A stretch of 64,000 bases of DNA, taken from Promethearchaeota archaeon (lineage in GTDB: Archaea; Asgardarchaeota; Lokiarchaeia; Sigyniarchaeales; SOKP01). Under the pieces are notes generated by a model. It made no database searches and was not told the origin of the DNA. It saw only the letters and a program-made list of their open reading frames with translations. The DNA is taken from assembly GCA_016839765.1 (NCBI GenBank), contig JAEOTP010000034.1:36606-100605 (forward strand). Reading direction: 5' to 3'. A program made the position numbers and the translations under genes. Positions 53,908 through 64,000 of this stretch are shown piece after piece; positions within the stretch are counted from its first letter, which is position 1; every line of letters begins with the position of its first letter.

Positions 53908-56112
53908 TCATAGAATTCTTTTTAATTCTAAAATCAAATTTTCTGGATTGTAACGATCGAATTGAAATATCTGAGCTTTACCAAATTTTTTAAAATTTTT
54001 CTTTATTTTATCTGCTGCGTATGTATTAACCCCTAAAGCTTGTGTGGCATAACTTTTTTTAGGTTCTAAAACAACCACGTGAACTCCTTTTTTTGAGAGT
54101 CTTTTAGTTAATTCTTTTAGCTCCTTAACGATTAGCGTATAATCAGTCTGTACTTGGGCGACTAAGTCGGGATATTTTACAGAAATATTTGATCCACAAT
54201 CTGAACATATGAAAATAACAGGAATAACATTTCTATTTTTTAATTTTTCAGCATTAATTAATTTAACACATTTTTTTAGTGCAGCTGCCATGGGAGTATA
54301 CGACTTTCCTTCAATACTTTTTAGTTTATTAAGAGCGTTTTTAAAATAAACTGTTGGCTTTTGAAGAACTATTGCTTCTTTACCTCTAAATATAATTAAA
54401 CTGATTTTATCTCTTTTTCTATATCCTTCCTTATGTAAGGATAAAATTACATCTGTCATTTGTTTTATCACATAATACATCGATGCAGAACTGTCAAGTA
54501 CAAAAAAAAGTAAAAGGGGTGCACGATATTCGAAGATCTTATCCATTAAATCATATTTATTGAATTTTATAGGAAATTCTATATCTGTTTGATTATATAT
54601 TGTGTTTTTCAAATAGCTTCTTATAGTTGCATCTAAAGCTAAACTCTTTGGTTTATCTATGGGGGTTCGATAAGAAATATACTTTCCTTTTTGAGAAGAT
54701 GCTATTTTAATTCGCCTTCCTATACCACGACCTCCATAATTTGAAACTTTTCGTTCTTTTCGGATATTATCAAGAACGGAACTCATTTTTTGTTCCATTT
54801 TATAAATTAATGGCAATTCCTCAGTTTGATTTTCAAAAAATTTAAGATCTATCTCTTCAAGGGGAATATTTTTTACTTTCCAACCTCCTGCAGGAGCAGG
54901 ACTCCTTTTTTTGTTATCAGGATATTTAGGGGGAGGTAATTTTTGTTCTTTAGTCTCCGGCATTTTAACTTTTCTCGGATCTACTGATTGTCGTTTGAAT
55001 TCTTTATGTAATGTATCATCCTGTTTTAATGGTCCTTCCGAATCAGGGTTAGGCTTATAAGCATTAGGATCCTCATATGCTTTTTGTATTTTTCCATAAA
55101 CTTCTGCAATTTTAGCTTGAATTTCTTTGGGAGTCATCTCATAATGAAGCGACTGAATTCTATGTTCGAAAACTAAATCCAAAGCTACATTTAAATCTTC
55201 CTCTGTAATTTGTGTTCTACTATTAAAAGCAGCATGAGCTCTAGCACAGCGTATGAAAGTTATATCTGCTCTTTGAGAAAAGATCTCTAATTCATTAACA
55301 ATCATAGATACAAATTCAAAAACAGAGGATGGCACTTTTACTTCTTTTAGTATTTCTCTCGCTTTTTTGATCTTATCTCGTAGTTCTTTCTCTTCTTCTA
55401 CATATCTCTTAATAAATGTTTTTGGATCATCATCAAATTCGATAACTCTTCTTGTTATTTCTGCTCTTAACTTTGAATTTCTTGGTGCTTTTATTTTAAC
55501 TTCCAAACCGAGACGATCAGCAATTTGGGGCCTTAATTCACCTTCCTCAGGATTCATTGAACCCACTAAAACGAATCGGGATGGGTGCATAACAGAGATT
55601 CCTTCTCTTTCAATGATATTTACACCAGAAGCAGCTGCATCCAATAAAGTATCAACTATATGATCCTGCAGGAGATTAATCTCATCGATGTAAAGTATCC
55701 CGCGATTTGCTTTTGCTAATAAACCTGGATGAAGACTTTTAATGCCTTCAGTGAGGACTTTATCGATAGAGAGACTACCACAAACCATATCTTCTGTAAT
55801 TCCTAATGGCAGGTTTACAAGTCTCATTTCACGAATATCTACTTTTATCTCTCGTTTTCCTTTCTTTATACGGCATTCTTCACATAAATCTTCATTTTCT
55901 AAGTGAGGATCACATGAAAATGGACAATCCTTTACAACTTCAATCTCAGGCATAACTTCAACAAGGCTTCTTACGGCTGTTGATTTCCCTGTACCTTGTT
56001 GTCCTGATAATAATATTCCACCAATTTGTGGGTCAATAACGTTTAAAATAAGCCCCATTTTCATTTTGTCCTGTCCTAAAATAGCTACGAAAGGAAAGGA
56101 TGAAATTTTCAT
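53908..56112 (-). CDS. Mg/Co-chelatase ChlI/ChlD-like AAA+ ATPase with C-terminal vWA domain
   Basis: FPFVAILGQ, GQQGTGKST, LYIDEINLL, GSMNPEEGELRPQ; vWA MIDAS DSSASM, TP, SD. Confidence 0.88.
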   Translation of the reverse strand: MKISSFPFVAILGQDKMKMGLILNVIDPQIGGILLSGQQGTGKSTAVRSLVEVMPEIEVVKDCPFSCDPHLENEDLCEECRIKKGKREIKVDIREMRLVNLPLGITEDMVCGSLSIDKVLTEGIKSLHPGLLAKANRGILYIDEINLLQDHIVDTLLDAAASGVNIIEREGISVMHPSRFVLVGSMNPEEGELRPQIADRLGLEVKIKAPRNSKLRAEITRRVIEFDDDPKTFIKRYVEEEKELRDKIKKAREILKEVKVPSSVFEFVSMIVNELEIFSQRADITFIRCARAHAAFNSRTQITEEDLNVALDLVFEHRIQSLHYEMTPKEIQAKIAEVYGKIQKAYEDPNAYKPNPDSEGPLKQDDTLHKEFKRQSVDPRKVKMPETKEQKLPPPKYPDNKKRSPAPAGGWKVKNIPLEEIDLKFFENQTEELPLIYKMEQKMSSVLDNIRKERKVSNYGGRGIGRRIKIASSQKGKYISYRTPIDKPKSLALDATIRSYLKNTIYNQTDIEFPIKFNKYDLMDKIFEYRAPLLLFFVLDSSASMYYVIKQMTDVILSLHKEGYRKRDKISLIIFRGKEAIVLQKPTVYFKNALNKLKSIEGKSYTPMAAALKKCVKLINAEKLKNRNVIPVIFICSDCGSNISVKYPDLVAQVQTDYTLIVKELKELTKRLSKKGVHVVVLEPKKSYATQALGVNTYAADKIKKNFKKFGKAQIFQFDRYNPENLILELKRIL

Positions 56113-56270
56113 ATTTTTACTCCAGATAAATCTTCTAACAACTTAAATTGTTTAGTTAGACATTCTTTTAATTAAAAAGAATATTAAGTAAAATAAAGAT
56201 TTTCCTTTTAAACCTTATATTAAAAATAGGGTTTATAAAATTAAAATAAAAAAAGAATCCATTCAAATAT

Positions 56271-57221
56271 TTAAAATTTTTTAGATAATAATGTTAGTTT
56301 TTCATTGAGATTTGAAACACACTCATCCCATTCTGCTAAAACTTCTTTAATTTTTGGTATAATTATGTCTCTTTCTTTAAATTCTAAATAATCCATAAAC
56401 TGTTTAATCTTCTCTATTTTTATGAAGGTTTCAGCTACGTATTTCCGTATTTCACGAGTTTGATTATCTAAAACTTCATAGATTCTATGAGATTCTCCTT
56501 TACGCATCAATGTGGCTAAATATTCTTCAGTACCAAGAAATAATGAGTCTAATTGATTAATTTGGTTTTTAATAAATCTATCATATGTTTCTAAAATATT
56601 ATCACTTGGGAAAAAGTTAGTAATATCAATAACAAATTTCTGTGCTTGTATTACTAACTGTTCCATGCTTTCAAATCCCTCAATTCTATATTCAACTTCA
56701 TGAAAGTTACTTCTCTCGTTATTTCCATCATTTAATCTGAAAATTTTAAAACCGGGATCGTTTTTTAACTGTTTTACCGGATCCCCTTTTCTTTCTGGAT
56801 ATTCTACCTGTCTAACTAGACGTTCTGGATTAAATACTAGAGAAATAGCAAGGGAATTTAAACTTTGATATGCTACTGTAGTTTTTCTATCACCAAATCC
56901 CGAAAGCATAACTCTAAAGCCTGGATGACTATGCCACCAACCTATTACATAATCACCTTTATCAAAAGCTTCTTCTTCAATGATTACCGTCGAAGCATAA
57001 TCTTCTTCCGACCAGACGTATTTATCAACTATAGCCTTGGGATCATAAACTTCATGCATAATTGGATATGCTTTTGAAATTAATACATCATCATTTTGAT
57101 TTTTGCCAATGAAAATCCCGTTTGCTTCTATCCACTTATCTTTTGGTATTTTTTGATTCGCAAATCTCACACTCGCAGCAATAATCGTTAAGTACGCCTG
57201 TTTAGGAATAATCACAGTCAT
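56271..57221 (-). CDS. JAB/MPN domain protein with helical C-terminus (MPN-1)
   Basis: EANGIFIG, IGWWHSHPGFRVMLSGFGD, ISLVFNP, GFKIFRL. Confidence 0.85.
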   Translation of the reverse strand: MTVIIPKQAYLTIIAASVRFANQKIPKDKWIEANGIFIGKNQNDDVLISKAYPIMHEVYDPKAIVDKYVWSEEDYASTVIIEEEAFDKGDYVIGWWHSHPGFRVMLSGFGDRKTTVAYQSLNSLAISLVFNPERLVRQVEYPERKGDPVKQLKNDPGFKIFRLNDGNNERSNFHEVEYRIEGFESMEQLVIQAQKFVIDITNFFPSDNILETYDRFIKNQINQLDSLFLGTEEYLATLMRKGESHRIYEVLDNQTREIRKYVAETFIKIEKIKQFMDYLEFKERDIIIPKIKEVLAEWDECVSNLNEKLTLLSKKF

Positions 57222-57641: not shown

Positions 57642-58271
57642 ATGGCTGAAAAAGGTTTTGAACCACTAACAAGTCAACTGGGTATACCTGGGACTTCTTA
57701 TAGGATTCAGCTGGGATTAATTAATGAAAAATGGGCATCAAGATTGTTGAAAGGACAAAATGTTATAGATTCATACATTTATAAGGATGAAGATATAGCA
57801 GAAGGGGGATTTCCTAATCAAAATCTCATCGTGGGTTGGGTCTTACGTACTGTGGCAATTCCAAATATAAACCCACATCAAGTAATGAAAACCACTCAGG
57901 CTTTAGTGAAACAAGCAATTGAAAAGAAAGAACAAAAGAAAGTTATGGCGCCCATACAAGAAATTAAAAAGGTTGAATTAGAAAAAGTACCTGAAAGTGA
58001 AATAAAAAGACCTCAATCAGTGGGATGGGTAAAACAGGAAGGAATGAAGTCTGTACAGGAATTAGAAGAAGAAAAACGTCAAGCCTTTAAAGAAAGAATG
58101 GTATATAAGAAACAAGAAGAAGAAATAAGAAGATCTGGTACAATCACAACCTCAAGAGAGTTACCTTCTATACCTAAAGGTGAAGAAGCGCCATCAACAT
58201 TCTGTCCTCATTGCGGAAAAGATTTAGATTGGAAATATTGTCCTTTTTGTGGGGGAAAACTTCCACATTAG
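57642..58271 (+). CDS. Hypothetical protein with charged linker and C-terminal zinc ribbon
   Basis: Globular N-terminus, RELPSIP, CPHCG...CPFCG. Confidence 0.75.
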   Translation: MAEKGFEPLTSQLGIPGTSYRIQLGLINEKWASRLLKGQNVIDSYIYKDEDIAEGGFPNQNLIVGWVLRTVAIPNINPHQVMKTTQALVKQAIEKKEQKKVMAPIQEIKKVELEKVPESEIKRPQSVGWVKQEGMKSVQELEEEKRQAFKERMVYKKQEEEIRRSGTITTSRELPSIPKGEEAPSTFCPHCGKDLDWKYCPFCGGKLPH

Positions 58272-58391: not shown

Positions 58392-59864
58392 TTGAGTGAT
58401 AAAGTAATGGGCAAAGATACAGATACAAGTGTTGTTACCATCAAACCAATGGCCTATTATAAGATGTTAGTTCATGTTCTTAGATTTGGATCAAAAACAC
58501 AAGCCGTTAATGAATACAAAGAAGTTATGGGAATGCTAATTGGTCATCTAGAGGGACAGGGCGAAATTAAGGATGTAATCATAGAAGATGTTGTACCTAT
58601 AACACATGGAGGATCAATTGAAGTTAAGTTTTCTGCAGAACAGCTTGGTGCTTTTGGAGAAATTGATAGGCAAATCTGGGAACACCATGGTGAAGAAAAT
58701 TGGTTTAGTGTTGGTTGGTATCATAGTCACCCGAATTTGGGAATTTTCTTCTCTAGCACTGATATATTTAATCAAATATTTTGGCAAGATAAAAATCCTA
58801 GCGGTCTAGGAATAGTATTTGATCATGCCTATTTGGAAAAACCTAGTGATTTAGGTTTTAGAGTTTTTAGATTAGAAGATCCTTCAAAAGGACTAAATTC
58901 TAAGTATTATGAAGTTAAAGCTATAGTCGAGCCACCAGATAATTTTGAATTTTATGAGAAAATAATTGATTTGATAAATAAAATATACTCGAAAGAAGCT
59001 CCAATTCTTGAATTAAATGAAACCACTGATTTATTTAGCGATATATTTTTTCCTGAACAAAAACAACTAGAAAGTAAAAAACCTCAATTATCAGTACAAG
59101 AATTGTTAAATAATTTAAAGAAAGGGTTTTCAACTTTTATAGATTTATCAATTGAACCTCTAATTAACATACTTAACCTTTGGAGCCAAGATATTGTAAA
59201 AAAGATGTTCTATAATAATACACAAATGAGAAATGATTTAATTGATATAAAAGAAAATCTAACCACTGGCATAAGTAACCTCCAGAAGTCATTTAACTTC
59301 TCATTGCAAGACGATTTAAAGAAATTAGATTTCTATATAGATGGTAAGCTTGATAAACTTGATGAAGGACTGAATAATATGGAAAAAGCAATTCATCAAT
59401 TTAAAGAGAACCTTACACTACAAATAAATCAATTAATTGAAAATTCATTTTTACAAAACATTAATCAAATGATTGATAACTTTGATAAAAATCTTGGAGA
59501 TTTAAACGGAATAAATGAAATGAATGAGATTGTTTTACAAACTTTAGAGCCAGATTATGTTGAATTAGAAAAGCTATTTAATATCATTGATCCTACAAAA
59601 AGTAGAATAAAAGGCGCTATAGAGGATAATCAAGAGATAATTCTAAACAATTTTGGGAAAAAATTACCCCATATTAAAGACATCTTTTCCAATTTAGATA
59701 AGGATTTAAGAAAACTCCTCTCAGATTTAAAAGCAGCTATACTAGTTCTCGAGGGTTCTAAAGGTCCTGTTCTAAACAAAATTGAAAAATTAGAGAATGA
59801 GAAAAAAAATCTTCATAATACTATAAGAGAATTAAAAAATGAAATTAAAGAATTGAAGAAGTGA
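58392..59864 (+). CDS. Rpn11/CSN5-like JAMM metalloprotease (MPN+) with long helical tail (MPN-2)
   Basis: KMLVH..., EVMGMLIG, VGWYHSHPNLGIFFSSTD = complete E-HxH-x7-S-x2-D. Confidence 0.9.
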   Translation: MSDKVMGKDTDTSVVTIKPMAYYKMLVHVLRFGSKTQAVNEYKEVMGMLIGHLEGQGEIKDVIIEDVVPITHGGSIEVKFSAEQLGAFGEIDRQIWEHHGEENWFSVGWYHSHPNLGIFFSSTDIFNQIFWQDKNPSGLGIVFDHAYLEKPSDLGFRVFRLEDPSKGLNSKYYEVKAIVEPPDNFEFYEKIIDLINKIYSKEAPILELNETTDLFSDIFFPEQKQLESKKPQLSVQELLNNLKKGFSTFIDLSIEPLINILNLWSQDIVKKMFYNNTQMRNDLIDIKENLTTGISNLQKSFNFSLQDDLKKLDFYIDGKLDKLDEGLNNMEKAIHQFKENLTLQINQLIENSFLQNINQMIDNFDKNLGDLNGINEMNEIVLQTLEPDYVELEKLFNIIDPTKSRIKGAIEDNQEIILNNFGKKLPHIKDIFSNLDKDLRKLLSDLKAAILVLEGSKGPVLNKIEKLENEKKNLHNTIRELKNEIKELKK

Positions 59865-59876
59865 TTGTGAAATATT

Positions 59877-61277
59877 ATGATAAACACCCCTAACAATAAT
59901 AAAGAAGAAAAACTCGAGATTGCAAAAGATTGGAAAGTGTATATAAGAAATGACGCTTTTAGAAAAATGCTTAGTCATATAGTTAGGTTTGCTAATAAAT
60001 CATTGGAAGATAATCAAGAAGTAATGGGCATTTGTATAGGTGAAGCAAATTCAGAAGACAAGACTTTAAATTTAATGAATATCATTCCTGTATGTCATGG
60101 AGATATCGTAGAACTTGGGTTTTCTCAAGAAGTTCATAAAAAAATTATACAAATTGAAGAAAAAATTATTACTACAAATTTAAAAATGATTGGTTGGTAT
60201 CATTCGAGACTAGAAGGTGGTCTTTTCTTTTCTCACGCAGATAGGAGTAATCAATTATATTTTCAAAATGAGAAACACCCATATGGATTTGGAATTGTAT
60301 TTGATAATAACCTCCTTAATTCTGGAAATAAATTTGGATTTGAGATTTTTAGATTTAAAGCCTTTTCAAAAGGAATAGACAGTGAATATGTTGAAGTGCC
60401 TTTTGAACTGGAAGTACCTAACACTTTAGAATTTTTCAAATGGATAAAAGCGCTGGTAGAAGATCTTCAGAGAAAAAATCCTATAGTGATCAATGAGTTT
60501 GATGAAATTAGAAAACCAATGCCTGGAGAACTTCAAGAAATCCCAAAAATAGAAGATGTTGCGATTAAAAACGGTGATGATGATTTTAATGCTCAAATAC
60601 AACCAATATTCACAGGTTTTAGAGAGGGCACTTCGCAATTTGTAGATAATTTTATTGATGCCTATAAAAACCAATTAAGTAATTGGATGATTGATGTTAG
60701 AAATGGCTCATTAAAAGGTATTGAACAGATTAGAAGTATTGTGAATCAGATGAAATATTCTTTTGAACAAGGTTTAGAAAATATCCAAAATTACTTTGAT
60801 AAAAGTTTTTCTGAAATTTCAGATGTATTTATCACAAATATTTCAGAATATATTGATAGAAGAGTTGAAACCCAAAAAGAGTTTACAATCAAATTTTCAG
60901 ATTCATTCGAGGAAATTTCTAACGACATACAATCTATAATAGAAAATAATTTAAAAGAATTTACTGATAAATTAAAAGAAAAAATATCATATGAAGAGGT
61001 AAAATTATATAATATTAATCAAATAAACACTAAGATTAAGCCTTTACTTAATAAATCCTCAGATTTATTAACTAAGACTTTTAATAATACAAATGCTCTT
61101 TCTGACGATCTCATAAATGAAATTAAAAGATTGAGTTCCAGGTTTAGTTTAAGTTTGAATGAAGAAATTGAAAATCTAAATTTAGATTCTGATCCTATTA
61201 AAGAAAAATATAAAGAAATCGAAGAATTAATTGAACGGCTCCAAAAAGTCATCTCAGACTTTAGACAATTAAAATAA
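59877..61277 (+). CDS. Degenerate MPN (MPN-) paralog with long helical tail (MPN-3)
   Basis: EVMGICIG, IGWYHSRLEGGLFFSHAD: second Zn-ligand His replaced by Arg. Confidence 0.85.
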   Translation: MINTPNNNKEEKLEIAKDWKVYIRNDAFRKMLSHIVRFANKSLEDNQEVMGICIGEANSEDKTLNLMNIIPVCHGDIVELGFSQEVHKKIIQIEEKIITTNLKMIGWYHSRLEGGLFFSHADRSNQLYFQNEKHPYGFGIVFDNNLLNSGNKFGFEIFRFKAFSKGIDSEYVEVPFELEVPNTLEFFKWIKALVEDLQRKNPIVINEFDEIRKPMPGELQEIPKIEDVAIKNGDDDFNAQIQPIFTGFREGTSQFVDNFIDAYKNQLSNWMIDVRNGSLKGIEQIRSIVNQMKYSFEQGLENIQNYFDKSFSEISDVFITNISEYIDRRVETQKEFTIKFSDSFEEISNDIQSIIENNLKEFTDKLKEKISYEEVKLYNINQINTKIKPLLNKSSDLLTKTFNNTNALSDDLINEIKRLSSRFSLSLNEEIENLNLDSDPIKEKYKEIEELIERLQKVISDFRQLK

Positions 61278-61315: not shown

Positions 61316-61630
61316 TTAGAAAAATTCTAATGAAGATACAGAGGATATATTTAATTTATACTTAGGGATATTAGTATTGAGTCTTTTTAATTGGTTTCTT
61401 TTTGCTATATTACTTAATATCCTACCAATTCTATCTACTCTAATATCTATTCCATAATTTTCTTTCAAAACAGAATTAATTTTATAAGAAGAAAGTATAA
61501 CTATTTCTGAAATATTTTTTTCACATAGCCTTTCAATTGCTTGTTTCACTAATTTTAAGATCGTTTCTTTATTGGGTTGATTCTCCATGTTCATATTAAT
61601 ATTATATTTGAAGGTTTTTAAAATTTTCAT
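61316..61630 (-). CDS. Small basic winged-helix-like hypothetical protein
   Basis: LSSYKINSVLKENYGIDIRVDRIGRILSNIAK..KYKL; true start probably a downstream Met. Confidence 0.55.
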   Translation of the reverse strand: MKILKTFKYNINMNMENQPNKETILKLVKQAIERLCEKNISEIVILSSYKINSVLKENYGIDIRVDRIGRILSNIAKRNQLKRLNTNIPKYKLNISSVSSLEFF

Positions 61631-61768: not shown

Positions 61769-64000
61769 ATGAAATCTAATAATCTATTATCCAAAATAAA
61801 AAAATTTTTAAAACCAATTTATCAGAAAGTTATTCTCAAAGAGATTTATTTAGAAGGAAAAGAGCCTCCAAAATCATATGCATTTAGTAAGAAGTTTATA
61901 GGAATCTATGCTCTGTTTTTTTCAATTTCTTTAATACTTTTAATAGTAATGAATATATCTGATATTACTTTCTCATTGTTTTTTGAGCAACTTTTTATTG
62001 TTGGAAATGTTATTGTTGCTTTATTTATTTTTCTCTCTCTTTTATATAGCAGTGATAAGCTCAGAATTTTTATTTTTGAAAAACATACCGGTATAAAACA
62101 ACTAATAATCTATTTAGGGGCAGGAATTGGATTTTATTTCCTCTTTCGAATGCTTATTTTATATAAACTGAATCTAATGACTTATCTATATTTTTTATCA
62201 ACAGTTTGGTTAATTTTATTAAGTACAAGGTTTTATATGTATTCTAGAAAGTTTGCAACAAAATTAGAAGCTAAATTTATAGCAAAGTATTCGTTAACTA
62301 GACGTTTCTTAGCAGGAATATCTCCTTATTTTATTCTAGGTTTATTAATTGTACTAGCCTTATTTTATCGACTTGTACTGGTGTTTATTTCTTTAGATTT
62401 TTTTGGATCTTATGATCCTCAGGGAGCAGTTGCGGTGTATCAAATAGAAATGCGATTAGTAATGCCATTGATTTATTTCAGTCTTATTATGACACTTTTA
62501 TTTATTATTTTTGAGTTTATTTTTACCCGCAGAAAGGCAGAAACTAAAAGAGCTGGTTTATTTGACAATTACACATTTTCTTTAATTGTATTTTTTATCT
62601 TTTTCTTTCAGATCTTTCAGATTACTATCTTTTTATTATTAAGACCAGAAACATTTAGCGCTTTAAAAGCTACGGTAGGTGCTACTAGCTCTACAGTATC
62701 CTTTATTTTTGTTTTTGAGTTTTTAATTTCCATGATTTTTCTATATAGGGTAATAACAAAGTTAGGTAGGTCTCTAGGTTGGCAAATATTTTTATTTAAA
62801 AGAGATGGATTGATCTTACTAATTTTGGGGTGTGTTATTGCTCAGACTTTAACCCGTTTTGGCTTAGAAGCTCAAATTTCAAACCAAGAGGTAAGTATTA
62901 TTGGAAATTTCTTGATGTATGATAAATATATTATATCTATTATAATGATCATCTTTCTTGGAGCAACTTTATTGGTTTATTATCTAAAACCTCAATCAAC
63001 CTCAATGTTCATTAGACTCCAAAAAGAAACAGTTGATGAAGAACAAGAAAAATTAGAAATCATATATAAACTATTAAAAAGTGAATATATAAGAAGAGGT
63101 GAAGCTTATCCAATTGAAATTTTAGATCGCGAATTGATAAAAGCAACAAAACTTCCTAAAAATGTATTATATTCTCTCATCAATGAGTTAGTTAACAGCG
63201 ATATGGATATAATTATAAGAAACATAAAAGATGATTATGGTATTACTCAAAAATTTATTGATTTTGTATCTATCACAGAAAAATTTGATAAAAAAGAAGT
63301 AGCACAGAAAAAAGCAAAATCTTATTTATCTCAGAGATTATACGAAACGATGACTAAAAAATCTCCCGACTTATTCAAATTAAATAGAGGTTTAGAATCA
63401 GATAAAGCTTCCGATCTATTTATGTCTTCACTTACAAACACTTATAGCAAAAAGTTAAAAGATGAAAGACTAATAGAGAAAAAACAGCAAGAAGCCGTTA
63501 TATCTTTTACCGAAAAAGAAATTCCAAAATCTTTAAAAAATGTACTCATTGAAATATTAAAAAAAGAATATATTTATCGGATTGAAAATAACGAAAAGTA
63601 TCCTGATTTTTATTTTTCTATTTCTGAAATAGCATCAATAATTCAAATGGAAACAAAGATTAATGCAGGAGAACTTTATCCAATTTTAGAAAATTTAGAT
63701 ATAGAGGATATTGAGTTAAGACTCTTAAAGAATAGTAATGAACCAGAAGATAAAATTATTAGATTTTTTCCTATTGCAGATGATGCACTTATGTATTCAC
63801 TAGCCAATTTTAGACCTAATGAATTCAACAAGATAAAAATTGAAATTATAAACCGATTTGTCAGATTTCTTAAAAGGAAGAAAAGTAAAGCAGGTATTTC
63901 TAAATTGAAAAAAGGAATAGGAAATGATACGGAGGAACAACGTGCATGGGATAATATATTAAAAAATTTACATAATCATTATCCTCTTTATATTGAGACA
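61769..64000 (+). CDS. Large polytopic membrane protein with duplicated cytoplasmic wHTH-like domains, 3'-truncated (not in ORF track)
   Basis: ATG at 61769, frame appears open to the window end (744 codons); about 10 TM helices, then soluble repeats IYKLLKSEYIRR.. and LIEILKKEYIYR.. Confidence 0.8.
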   Translation, partial: MKSNNLLSKIKKFLKPIYQKVILKEIYLEGKEPPKSYAFSKKFIGIYALFFSISLILLIVMNISDITFSLFFEQLFIVGNVIVALFIFLSLLYSSDKLRIFIFEKHTGIKQLIIYLGAGIGFYFLFRMLILYKLNLMTYLYFLSTVWLILLSTRFYMYSRKFATKLEAKFIAKYSLTRRFLAGISPYFILGLLIVLALFYRLVLVFISLDFFGSYDPQGAVAVYQIEMRLVMPLIYFSLIMTLLFIIFEFIFTRRKAETKRAGLFDNYTFSLIVFFIFFFQIFQITIFLLLRPETFSALKATVGATSSTVSFIFVFEFLISMIFLYRVITKLGRSLGWQIFLFKRDGLILLILGCVIAQTLTRFGLEAQISNQEVSIIGNFLMYDKYIISIIMIIFLGATLLVYYLKPQSTSMFIRLQKETVDEEQEKLEIIYKLLKSEYIRRGEAYPIEILDRELIKATKLPKNVLYSLINELVNSDMDIIIRNIKDDYGITQKFIDFVSITEKFDKKEVAQKKAKSYLSQRLYETMTKKSPDLFKLNRGLESDKASDLFMSSLTNTYSKKLKDERLIEKKQQEAVISFTEKEIPKSLKNVLIEILKKEYIYRIENNEKYPDFYFSISEIASIIQMETKINAGELYPILENLDIEDIELRLLKNSNEPEDKIIRFFPIADDALMYSLANFRPNEFNKIKIEIINRFVRFLKRKKSKAGISKLKKGIGNDTEEQRAWDNILKNLHNHYPLYIET

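Follow-up and report, generated by a model that had tools for sequence, protein, structure and literature searches.

In eukaryotes, the JAMM deubiquitinases Rpn11, CSN5 and BRCC36 function only in association with a dead MPN twin. CSN6 and Rpn8 use one conserved MPN surface for this association, in which the inactive member lends support to the enzyme (PMC4140821); in BRCC36-KIAA0157, mutations in helix alpha-1 break the heterodimer and the helices that follow the MPN domains pack as a "coiled coil helical bundle" (PMC4579573). In archaea, CsRpn11 of Caldiarchaeum subterraneum is a characterised deubiquitinase, a monomer in solution whose gene lies in a ubiquitin operon, and PCI proteins, the scaffold of the proteasome lid around Rpn11, are said to be unknown (PMC6043591). 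The design of an enzyme plus a dead twin is already known; a full-text literature search found no paper on an archaeal MPN+/MPN- pair or on stalked proteins of the kind described here, and the archaeal stalked version is new to the literature searched. The pair in question is encoded by two adjacent genes, Q1 and Q2, in a 64,000-nucleotide stretch of DNA (the window, in what follows) from the metagenome-assembled genome of a Promethearchaeota archaeon (GCA_016839765.1; 3.3 Mb, 96% complete), whose relatives are labelled Promethearchaeota or Promethearchaeia, that is, Loki-type Asgard archaea. Q1 is an active-type MPN protein and Q2 its degenerate paralog, and it appears on balance probable that the two form an MPN+/MPN- heterodimer on a two-chain stalk. 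An initial annotation of the window had proposed such a pair as a candidate analogue or precursor of Rpn11-Rpn8, CSN5-CSN6 and BRCC36-Abraxas.

The two genes and their parts are placed as follows (AF2, AlphaFold2; aa, amino acids).

58407..59864, + strand: Q1, MPN+ protein with a helical stalk (485 aa from ATG; the mechanical open reading frame, 58392-59864, gives 490 aa from TTG)
58431..58991, + strand: Q1 MPN domain, residues 14-200 (AF2 model, 14-199; Foldseek)
58722..58763, + strand: Q1 JAMM core H-S-H-x7-S-x2-D, residues 111-124 (from the sequence; Glu44 lies upstream)
58992..59129, + strand: Q1 linker, residues 201-246 (low AF2 confidence; ortholog alignment)
59130..59858, + strand: Q1 helical stalk, residues 247-489 (AF2; hydrophobic period)
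59877..61277, + strand: Q2, 466-aa paralog with a degenerate MPN domain and a matching stalk (open reading frame, Pfam, paralogy)
59934..60491, + strand: Q2 MPN domain, residues 20-205 (Pfam JAB; sequence match in the PDB)
60201..60242, + strand: Q2 degenerate JAMM core H-S-R-x7-S-H-A-D, residues 109-122 (from the sequence)
60528..60545, + strand: ELQEIP motif in the Q2 linker (nearly invariant among Q2 orthologs)
60639..61274, + strand: Q2 helical stalk, residues ~255-466 (period profile, conservation)

Residue numbers for Q1 follow the 490-aa form (TTG start at 58392); the ATG at 58407 is the likelier start because orthologs begin MGK. Q1 is a member of the JAMM/MPN+ family by its Pfam score (JAB, PF01398, 44.9 bits, with a cut-off of 22.5 bits), its complete motif and its MPN fold. 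The motif reads HSHPNLGIFFSSTD with the catalytic Glu upstream in EVMG, and E44, H111, H113, S121 and D124 make up the full E-x(n)-H-x-H-x7-S-x2-D pattern (JAMM motif as given in PMC300881). The AF2 model of Q1, built on a 37-row alignment, has a mean predicted local distance difference test score (pLDDT) of 71 and divides into the MPN block at residues 14-199 (pLDDT mostly mid-50s to mid-80s), a linker at 202-246 and an unbroken helix at 247-489. The linker is of low confidence in the monomer, yet E207, N209, E210, F215, P221 and P231 are invariant in it, and the C-terminal end of the stalk is conserved as well, past a Gly-Pro break. Foldseek matched the Q1 head with probability 1.00 to BRCC36, CsRpn11, Rpn11 and CSN5, and it also matched eIF3f/h; the top fold match is BRCC36 chain 6gvw_B (3.1e-10) and the best sequence match in the PDB is CsRpn11 (6fjv/6fju, 1e-8). 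Like CsRpn11, Q1 is an archaeal, eukaryote-like JAMM protein. A conserved HGGSIEVKF, placed by its position in the alignment with CsRpn11, is its putative Ins-1, the segment that in such enzymes pairs with the C-terminal tail of ubiquitin or a ubiquitin-like protein. It differs from CsRpn11 in size, since the solved CsRpn11 chains have 155 and 228 residues whereas Q1 carries ~290 residues of linker and stalk in addition to its head; in having a degenerate twin; and in gene context, since the CsRpn11 gene lies in a ubiquitin operon whereas Q1 lies outside the ubiquitin/E1/E2 clusters of its genome.

Q2 matches the same Pfam family at 44.6 bits. Its motif reads HSRLEGGLFFSHAD, in which the second zinc-ligand His has been replaced by Arg and the Glu, the first His, the Ser and the Asp are retained. 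The best sequence match of Q2 in the PDB is zebrafish BRCC36 (5cw6, 1.3e-6). An Ins-1-like segment, HGD..VELGF, is invariant in Q2, and its stalk ends in a conserved LIERLQK..FRQLK. Q1 and Q2 are full-length paralogs, with 29% identity over 401 aligned positions (E 1e-36), tails included, and they are separated by 12 bp on the same strand. The description in the initial annotation is thus borne out in its main lines: two same-strand paralogs 12 bp apart, the first with a complete JAMM site (HSH) and the second short of one zinc ligand (HSR), each continuing into a long helical tail.

The fate of the catalytic site was followed in alignments of 90%-identity cluster representatives and of one genome per species. 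The five-residue site E/H/H/S/D is present in Q1 in 119 of 120 cluster representatives and in all 51 species genomes, so Q1 is predicted to be an intact JAMM-type zinc isopeptidase in every species. In Q2 the same site is complete in 16/81 representatives and 5/53 species genomes, the other 48 species orthologs lacking at least one of the five residues. The losses are of several kinds: among the 81 representatives, the Glu is replaced by Gln in 27 and the second His by Arg in 21, and in further ones the first His has become Leu, Asn or Ser, sometimes with the Asp gone too, which gives ~19 different degenerate signatures among the species genomes. In a tree of Q2 with Q1 as the root, intact copies turn up in scattered positions (one basal, four nested), and the change from Glu to Gln appears in two clades, that from the second His to Arg in two, and loss of the first His in at least two more, the clades being well supported. 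Under the assumption that a lost site is never regained, the site was lost at least six separate times, or seven if the change from first His to Ser is scored separately for the two clades on either side of an intact species. The replacement of His by Arg, whose conservation the initial annotation had proposed to check, is fixed only in the window's own subclade; elsewhere the Glu, the first His or the Asp has been lost instead, or, in the five species, the full site is kept. Orthologs that retain HSH had been named there as evidence against an inactive partner, and such orthologs do exist in these five full-site species; the varied losses elsewhere strengthen the pseudo-enzyme reading.

Q2 is under purifying selection and is not a pseudogene, because its frame is open in all loci, its ratio of nonsynonymous to synonymous substitution (dN/dS) is low (0.11-0.32 in ten close pairs) and residues of its predicted interface with Q1 are conserved (entropy 1.33 against 1.67 in the rest of the MPN head, permutation p 0.02), while its catalytic columns vary. 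The MPN domain of Q2 taken separately has a dN/dS of 0.12-0.33, above that of the Q1 MPN domain in 10/10 pairs and about twice as high in most of them, and Q2 is the fastest-evolving gene of the neighbourhood, with 29-95% identity among orthologs compared to 40-95% for Q1. With an incomplete JAMM site that is kept by selection, Q2 fits the MPN- pseudo-enzyme type. Judged from the alignments, its catalysis is dispensable in this family of MPN pairs, because sister clades have lost the Glu, the first His or the Asp without a pattern like the SHAD of the window's Q2.

Full-length Q1 and Q2 were searched for in 151 species genomes across Promethearchaeota. Both were found in 25/25 genomes of the window's family, which span six genera, and the matches in the remaining 126 genomes were all to short MPN proteins. 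A search with the Q1 head against 1.8 billion cluster representatives returned 542 relatives, including single MPN proteins with long tails (530-683 aa) that belong to other Promethearchaeota. The same tandem pair occurs in two distant lineages, L058 and L061 (454 + 466 aa in overlapping frames in L058, 456 + 455 aa in L061). In both of these lineages, both copies retain the Glu, both His, the Ser and the Asp. A tree limited to archaeal sequences places the first genes in one clade (Shimodaira-Hasegawa-like approximate likelihood-ratio test, SH-aLRT, 97) and the second genes in its sister (97), with a joint node at 94 and the single long-tailed archaeal MPN proteins as outgroup to both. The sister clades and the intact pairs of L058 and L061 together indicate that the duplication is old, that it took place within the phylum and that the second copy began as an enzyme. 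On the tree, Q1 and Q2 thus go back to one old event inside Promethearchaeota, in which a gene for an MPN head plus stalk was duplicated in tandem; the second copy is reconstructed as ancestrally active, with decay seen only in the window's family. The pair therefore seems, as far as these sequences go, to be a parallel archaeal invention that is separate from the eukaryotic MPN pairs. Its candidacy as a precursor of Rpn11-Rpn8, CSN5-CSN6 and BRCC36-Abraxas is not supported: it is opposed by the archaeal tree, in which Q1 and Q2 are sisters from a duplication inside Promethearchaeota, by the shared tails and by a distribution in which the pair occurs in one family of the 151-genome sample. Descent of Q2 from the Abraxas/KIAA0157 lineage was likewise set aside, Q2 being the sister of Q1 in the archaeal-only tree with 29% full-length identity to it.

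That the two proteins act together is suggested by gene order, by co-variation and by structure prediction. Of 53 related loci that were examined, 51 hold both genes, and in 50 of these Q1 and Q2 lie side by side in the same orientation. Their pairing on the genome is therefore not due to chance, and the tandem order, whose conservation the initial annotation had proposed to check, is conserved; in complete loci, neither gene was found without the other. When pairwise distances of seven neighbouring families in 27 species were compared by partial (residual) correlation, Q1-Q2 (0.74) and tail-tail (0.74) gave the highest values, in a test that is heuristic, draws on non-independent species pairs and yields no p-value. 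Complex prediction for full-length Q1 and Q2 with alignments gave an ipSAE of 0.62 (runs at 0.58, 0.62 and 0.66), the best of three controls scoring 0.00, where the mark used for this score is reached by 58/80 solved complexes and by 2/110 mismatched pairs. The runs share at least 81% of their contacts and the partner pLDDT is at least 70. In the models, the heads meet through residues 19-37 and 179-204 of Q1 and 28-43 and 178-204 of Q2, which in either chain are helix alpha-1 and the final helix of the MPN domain; the packing between Rpn11 and Rpn8 involves these helices too. The stalks run parallel in a continuous inter-chain seam of 276-293 confident contacts between Q1 254-443 and Q2 263-448, at a constant offset of +9, which corresponds to a predicted rod of ~190 residues and ~28 nm.

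Several observations weigh against this reading or narrow it. Close paralogs can pass the complex test together and its score cannot tell a heterodimer from a homodimer, so the 1:1 model that the initial annotation had suggested as a check separates the pair from its controls and leaves these two forms unseparated; part of the pass may also reflect likeness to solved MPN heterodimers. The stalk register is +9 in the model and +6 in the BLAST homology alignment, about three residues off. No fused Q1-Q2 protein was found among the longer proteins (817-2330 aa), which is weak evidence. As to function, two other MPN genes of the genome, which lie in ubiquitin/E1/E2 clusters, could be its main deubiquitinases, and an inactive partner is no inherent part of the system, both copies appearing active in L058 and L061.

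An arrangement that these points leave in play, although it appears unlikely, is that of two separate homodimeric rods, with Q1 as a stalked isopeptidase and Q2 as a non-catalytic receptor for ubiquitin or ubiquitin-like tails or as a structural rod, the adjacency of the genes coming from tandem duplication and a common pathway. Full-length paralogs with matching stalks could each self-pair, the complex test cannot separate a true partner from a close cousin, an own binding role would suit the invariant HGD..VELGF of Q2, and fragments of BRCC36 and of Rpn8/CSN6 also crystallise as homodimers (PMC4579573, PMC4140821). On the other hand, the residual co-variation between Q1 and Q2 is the highest of all, above all between the two tails; the gene order, with abutting or overlapping frames, has been kept since before the L058/L061 split; the best-conserved residues of the Q2 MPN domain lie on the helices predicted to face Q1; and the two genes are not found apart in complete loci.

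The stalk itself allows another reading. In both tails, the family-averaged hydrophobic period is 3.64 (close to 11/3) over ~170 residues and ~3.5 in the last ~55, and the repeat combines heptads with hendecads and is interrupted by stutters. A period of 3.64 also fits lipid-binding amphipathic 11-mers, which is a further point to be set against a two-chain stalk, and the tails could be helices of the apolipoprotein, perilipin or synuclein type that lie on a membrane or lipid and hold the MPN heads beside a membrane protein. Weak, faint hits to the Pfam family Apolipoprotein (PF01442) in relatives and the conserved multi-pass membrane protein encoded next to the pair are in keeping with this idea, which is nevertheless improbable: the complex model has the inter-chain seam described above at constant register, and conserved prolines are nearly absent from the stalks at residues 251-454, up to the Gly-Pro break near the end, unlike the proline-punctuated repeats of apolipoproteins. 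Hendecads are also typical of straight two-stranded coils. Least probable of all is a Q2 that is still a metalloenzyme here by virtue of the SHAD His compensating for the Arg at the second His position, since, for all that this His beside the motif Ser is invariant throughout the HSR clade (19 cluster representatives, 8 species), with residual metal binding possible, and that the window's Q2 keeps the other four residues, sister clades lost the Glu, the first His or the Asp with no such pattern and the position after the motif Ser is not known as a ligand position in JAMM enzymes.

If Q1 and Q2 form the heterodimer, they would be two subunits of one rod-shaped complex. Their MPN heads would dimerise by way of the two alpha-1 helices and the two final MPN helices, and their tails are predicted to zip into a parallel two-stranded stalk of constant register with a mostly 11-residue, hendecad-like repeat. 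Q1 would then remove ubiquitin or a ubiquitin-like tag, ubiquitin-like, E1 and E2 genes being present in the genome, and Q2 would serve as a non-catalytic scaffold or positioning partner whose own catalysis may have become dispensable when a single good site was enough for the dimer.

The initial annotation holds as to an analogue of the eukaryotic MPN+/MPN- dimers, with an active MPN protein beside a degenerate paralog, predicted pairing of head with head and stalk with stalk, and co-variation; that the complex is obligate and acts as a deubiquitylase, as proposed there, is inferred. BRCC36-Abraxas and BRCC36-KIAA0157 (ABRO1), of the BRCA1-A and BRISC core, are similar in joining an MPN+ enzyme to an MPN- pseudo-enzyme through MPN association and helix packing, both of which are predicted for Q1-Q2, and BRCC36 is the top fold match of Q1 and the top sequence match of Q2. 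They differ in origin, since Q2 is the sister of Q1 within Promethearchaeota; in having two short helices where Q1-Q2 have a stalk of ~190-240 residues; in that Q2 is still intact in some species; and in their partners, as none of the UEV (BRCC45)/MERIT40 type is linked to Q1-Q2, with no search aimed at UEV having been made. Rpn11-Rpn8 and CSN5-CSN6 are also active/inactive MPN pairs with a conserved MPN-MPN surface, and the Q1 fold matches both Rpn11 and CSN5. Unlike Q1-Q2, they belong to PCI-MPN assemblies with a multi-subunit helical bundle, and their C-terminal helices are short, whereas Q1 and Q2 each have a single helix of 200-240 residues in a predicted two-chain rod; Q1-Q2 are moreover found in one archaeal family and two distant lineages. 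No PCI gene adjoins the Q1-Q2 pair. The four PCI (PF01399) hits in the genome are marginal (best 23.9 bits), none of them lies near the pair, and four non-eukaryotic control genomes also match.

The origin of enzyme/pseudo-enzyme pairs has otherwise been inferred from end states only. This family appears to show the design of an enzyme plus a dead twin arising separately and with the process still under way, and the intact and decayed second subunits of sister species allow a direct comparison of what they contribute to the first. Additionally, Asgard MPN proteins include stalked and probably multi-subunit forms, beyond small operon-encoded enzymes like CsRpn11.

The genes around the pair that bear on its partners are these.

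57642..58271, + strand: zinc-ribbon protein, 209 aa, candidate partner, just upstream of Q1
58158-58175, + strand: ELPSIP motif in the zinc-ribbon protein, resembling the ELQEIP of Q2
61316..61630, - strand: 104-aa protein, candidate partner, conserved and with no Pfam family
61769..64000, + strand, running off the window: large multi-pass membrane protein, candidate anchor, conserved beside the pair
56271-57221, - strand: Q3, third MPN gene, 316 aa, with S-x3-D spacing, upstream of the pair

In most loci that reach far enough, the usual order is Roadblock, ATP-grasp, AAA+/vWA, Q3, zinc-ribbon protein, Q1, Q2, 104-aa protein and membrane protein. The zinc-ribbon protein has a nearly invariant N-terminal domain of ~95 aa, a charged linker that contains RELPSIP, and CxxC..CxxC at its C-terminal end, and its partial distance correlation with Q1 is 0.56. 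AF2 predicts four strands plus helices for the N-terminal domain (pLDDT 75-88); Foldseek found nothing for this fold at E <= 0.001, and the best VIA-align match has a Z of 5.6, with a few PH-like folds near 4. The zinc-ribbon protein and Q2 have the motif [ED]L[QP][ES]IP in common, and the pattern [ED]L[QPE][ESK]IP has 6 matches genome-wide in open reading frames of at least 80 aa; ELQEIP and ELPSIP may be a shared docking motif of the two proteins. The 104-aa protein is present in 52/53 loci at 64-97% identity. The membrane protein has 773 aa in the nearest relative (L002:11893-14214); it matches no Pfam family, a search of the Atlas returned its own cluster alone, all members of this cluster that are of known phylum are Promethearchaeota, and its partial distance correlation with Q2 is 0.55.

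The pair of L058 is adjoined by three orthologs, with identities of 41% (zinc-ribbon protein), 61% (104-aa protein) and 31% over 737 aa (membrane protein), and its neighbourhood holds none of the AAA+/vWA, Q3 and ATP-grasp genes. The L061 locus lacks these three as well, together with orthologs of the zinc-ribbon, 104-aa and membrane proteins. The residual correlation of Q3 is 0.63 with AAA+/vWA, compared to -0.30 with Q1 and -0.04 with Q2. On the basis of the linkage in L058 and of the distance co-variation, the core module is read here as the zinc-ribbon protein, Q1, Q2, the 104-aa protein and the membrane protein, and the Q3, AAA+/vWA and ATP-grasp genes probably form a separate module, of which Q3 and AAA+/vWA span 53908-57221 (- strand) of the window. 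Q3, AAA+/vWA and ATP-grasp as a core of the complex were thereby ruled out. The third MPN gene that the initial annotation had reported is indeed present, and its suggestion that this gene and the vWA gene belong to the complex did not hold, the two being absent beside the pair in L058 and L061 and co-varying with each other; of the nearby proteins that it had listed, the 104-aa protein, its winged helix-turn-helix candidate, is kept beside the pair in L058, and the vWA gene is not. The genes past the membrane protein encode an MFS transporter and a P-type ATPase and look unrelated, so that the module appears to end at the membrane protein.

Within this module, the conserved far ends of the stalks might dock the heads to the zinc-ribbon, 104-aa and membrane proteins, perhaps at the membrane. 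More specifically, and tentatively, for it is a possibility that we regard as rather doubtful, the module could be an undescribed Asgard machine in which a rod of ~30 nm is docked by its far end on the Promethearchaeota-specific membrane protein, via the 104-aa and zinc-ribbon proteins, and holds an isopeptidase at a set distance from the membrane. On this reading the family, whose living species range from active/active to active/dead pairs, would offer a natural experiment on the origin of partners of the Rpn8, CSN6 and Abraxas type. The locus also points to the membrane protein and the zinc-ribbon protein as candidate partners of a ubiquitin-type system among the archaea most closely related to eukaryotes.

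Just upstream of the pairs in the two distant lineages (L058:4158-6565 and L061:6206-7509) there are in each case two extra short MPN-like genes of 198-215 aa with degenerate sites, and three of these four genes match Pfam UPF0172 or JAB, at least weakly. The L058 upstream region also encodes a TPR protein of 258 aa. The window's genome has no orthologs of these short MPN-like genes or of the L058 TPR protein. Dead MPN subunits seem to occur as separate short proteins in lineages that still have an active long second copy.

The window's genome holds four further MPN genes besides those of the window, encoding 268, 163, 416 and 522 aa. The 268-aa MPN+ gene stands with ubiquitin-like open reading frames and an E2 with an HPN motif (G000:C17:126179-131313), and the minimal 163-aa MPN+ gene stands beside an E1-like gene of the ThiF type (G000:C33:160627-161800); a ubiquitin-type system is thus present in the genome, with small MPN genes of its own. 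The 416-aa MPN gene carries a helical tail. The 522-aa MPN+ protein (G000:C87:13180-14745; L055:581-2146) is conserved in the family, at 514-566 aa, and carries a fused C-terminal domain of TPR-like type, and this MPN-TPR chain is reminiscent of MPN/PCI assemblies.

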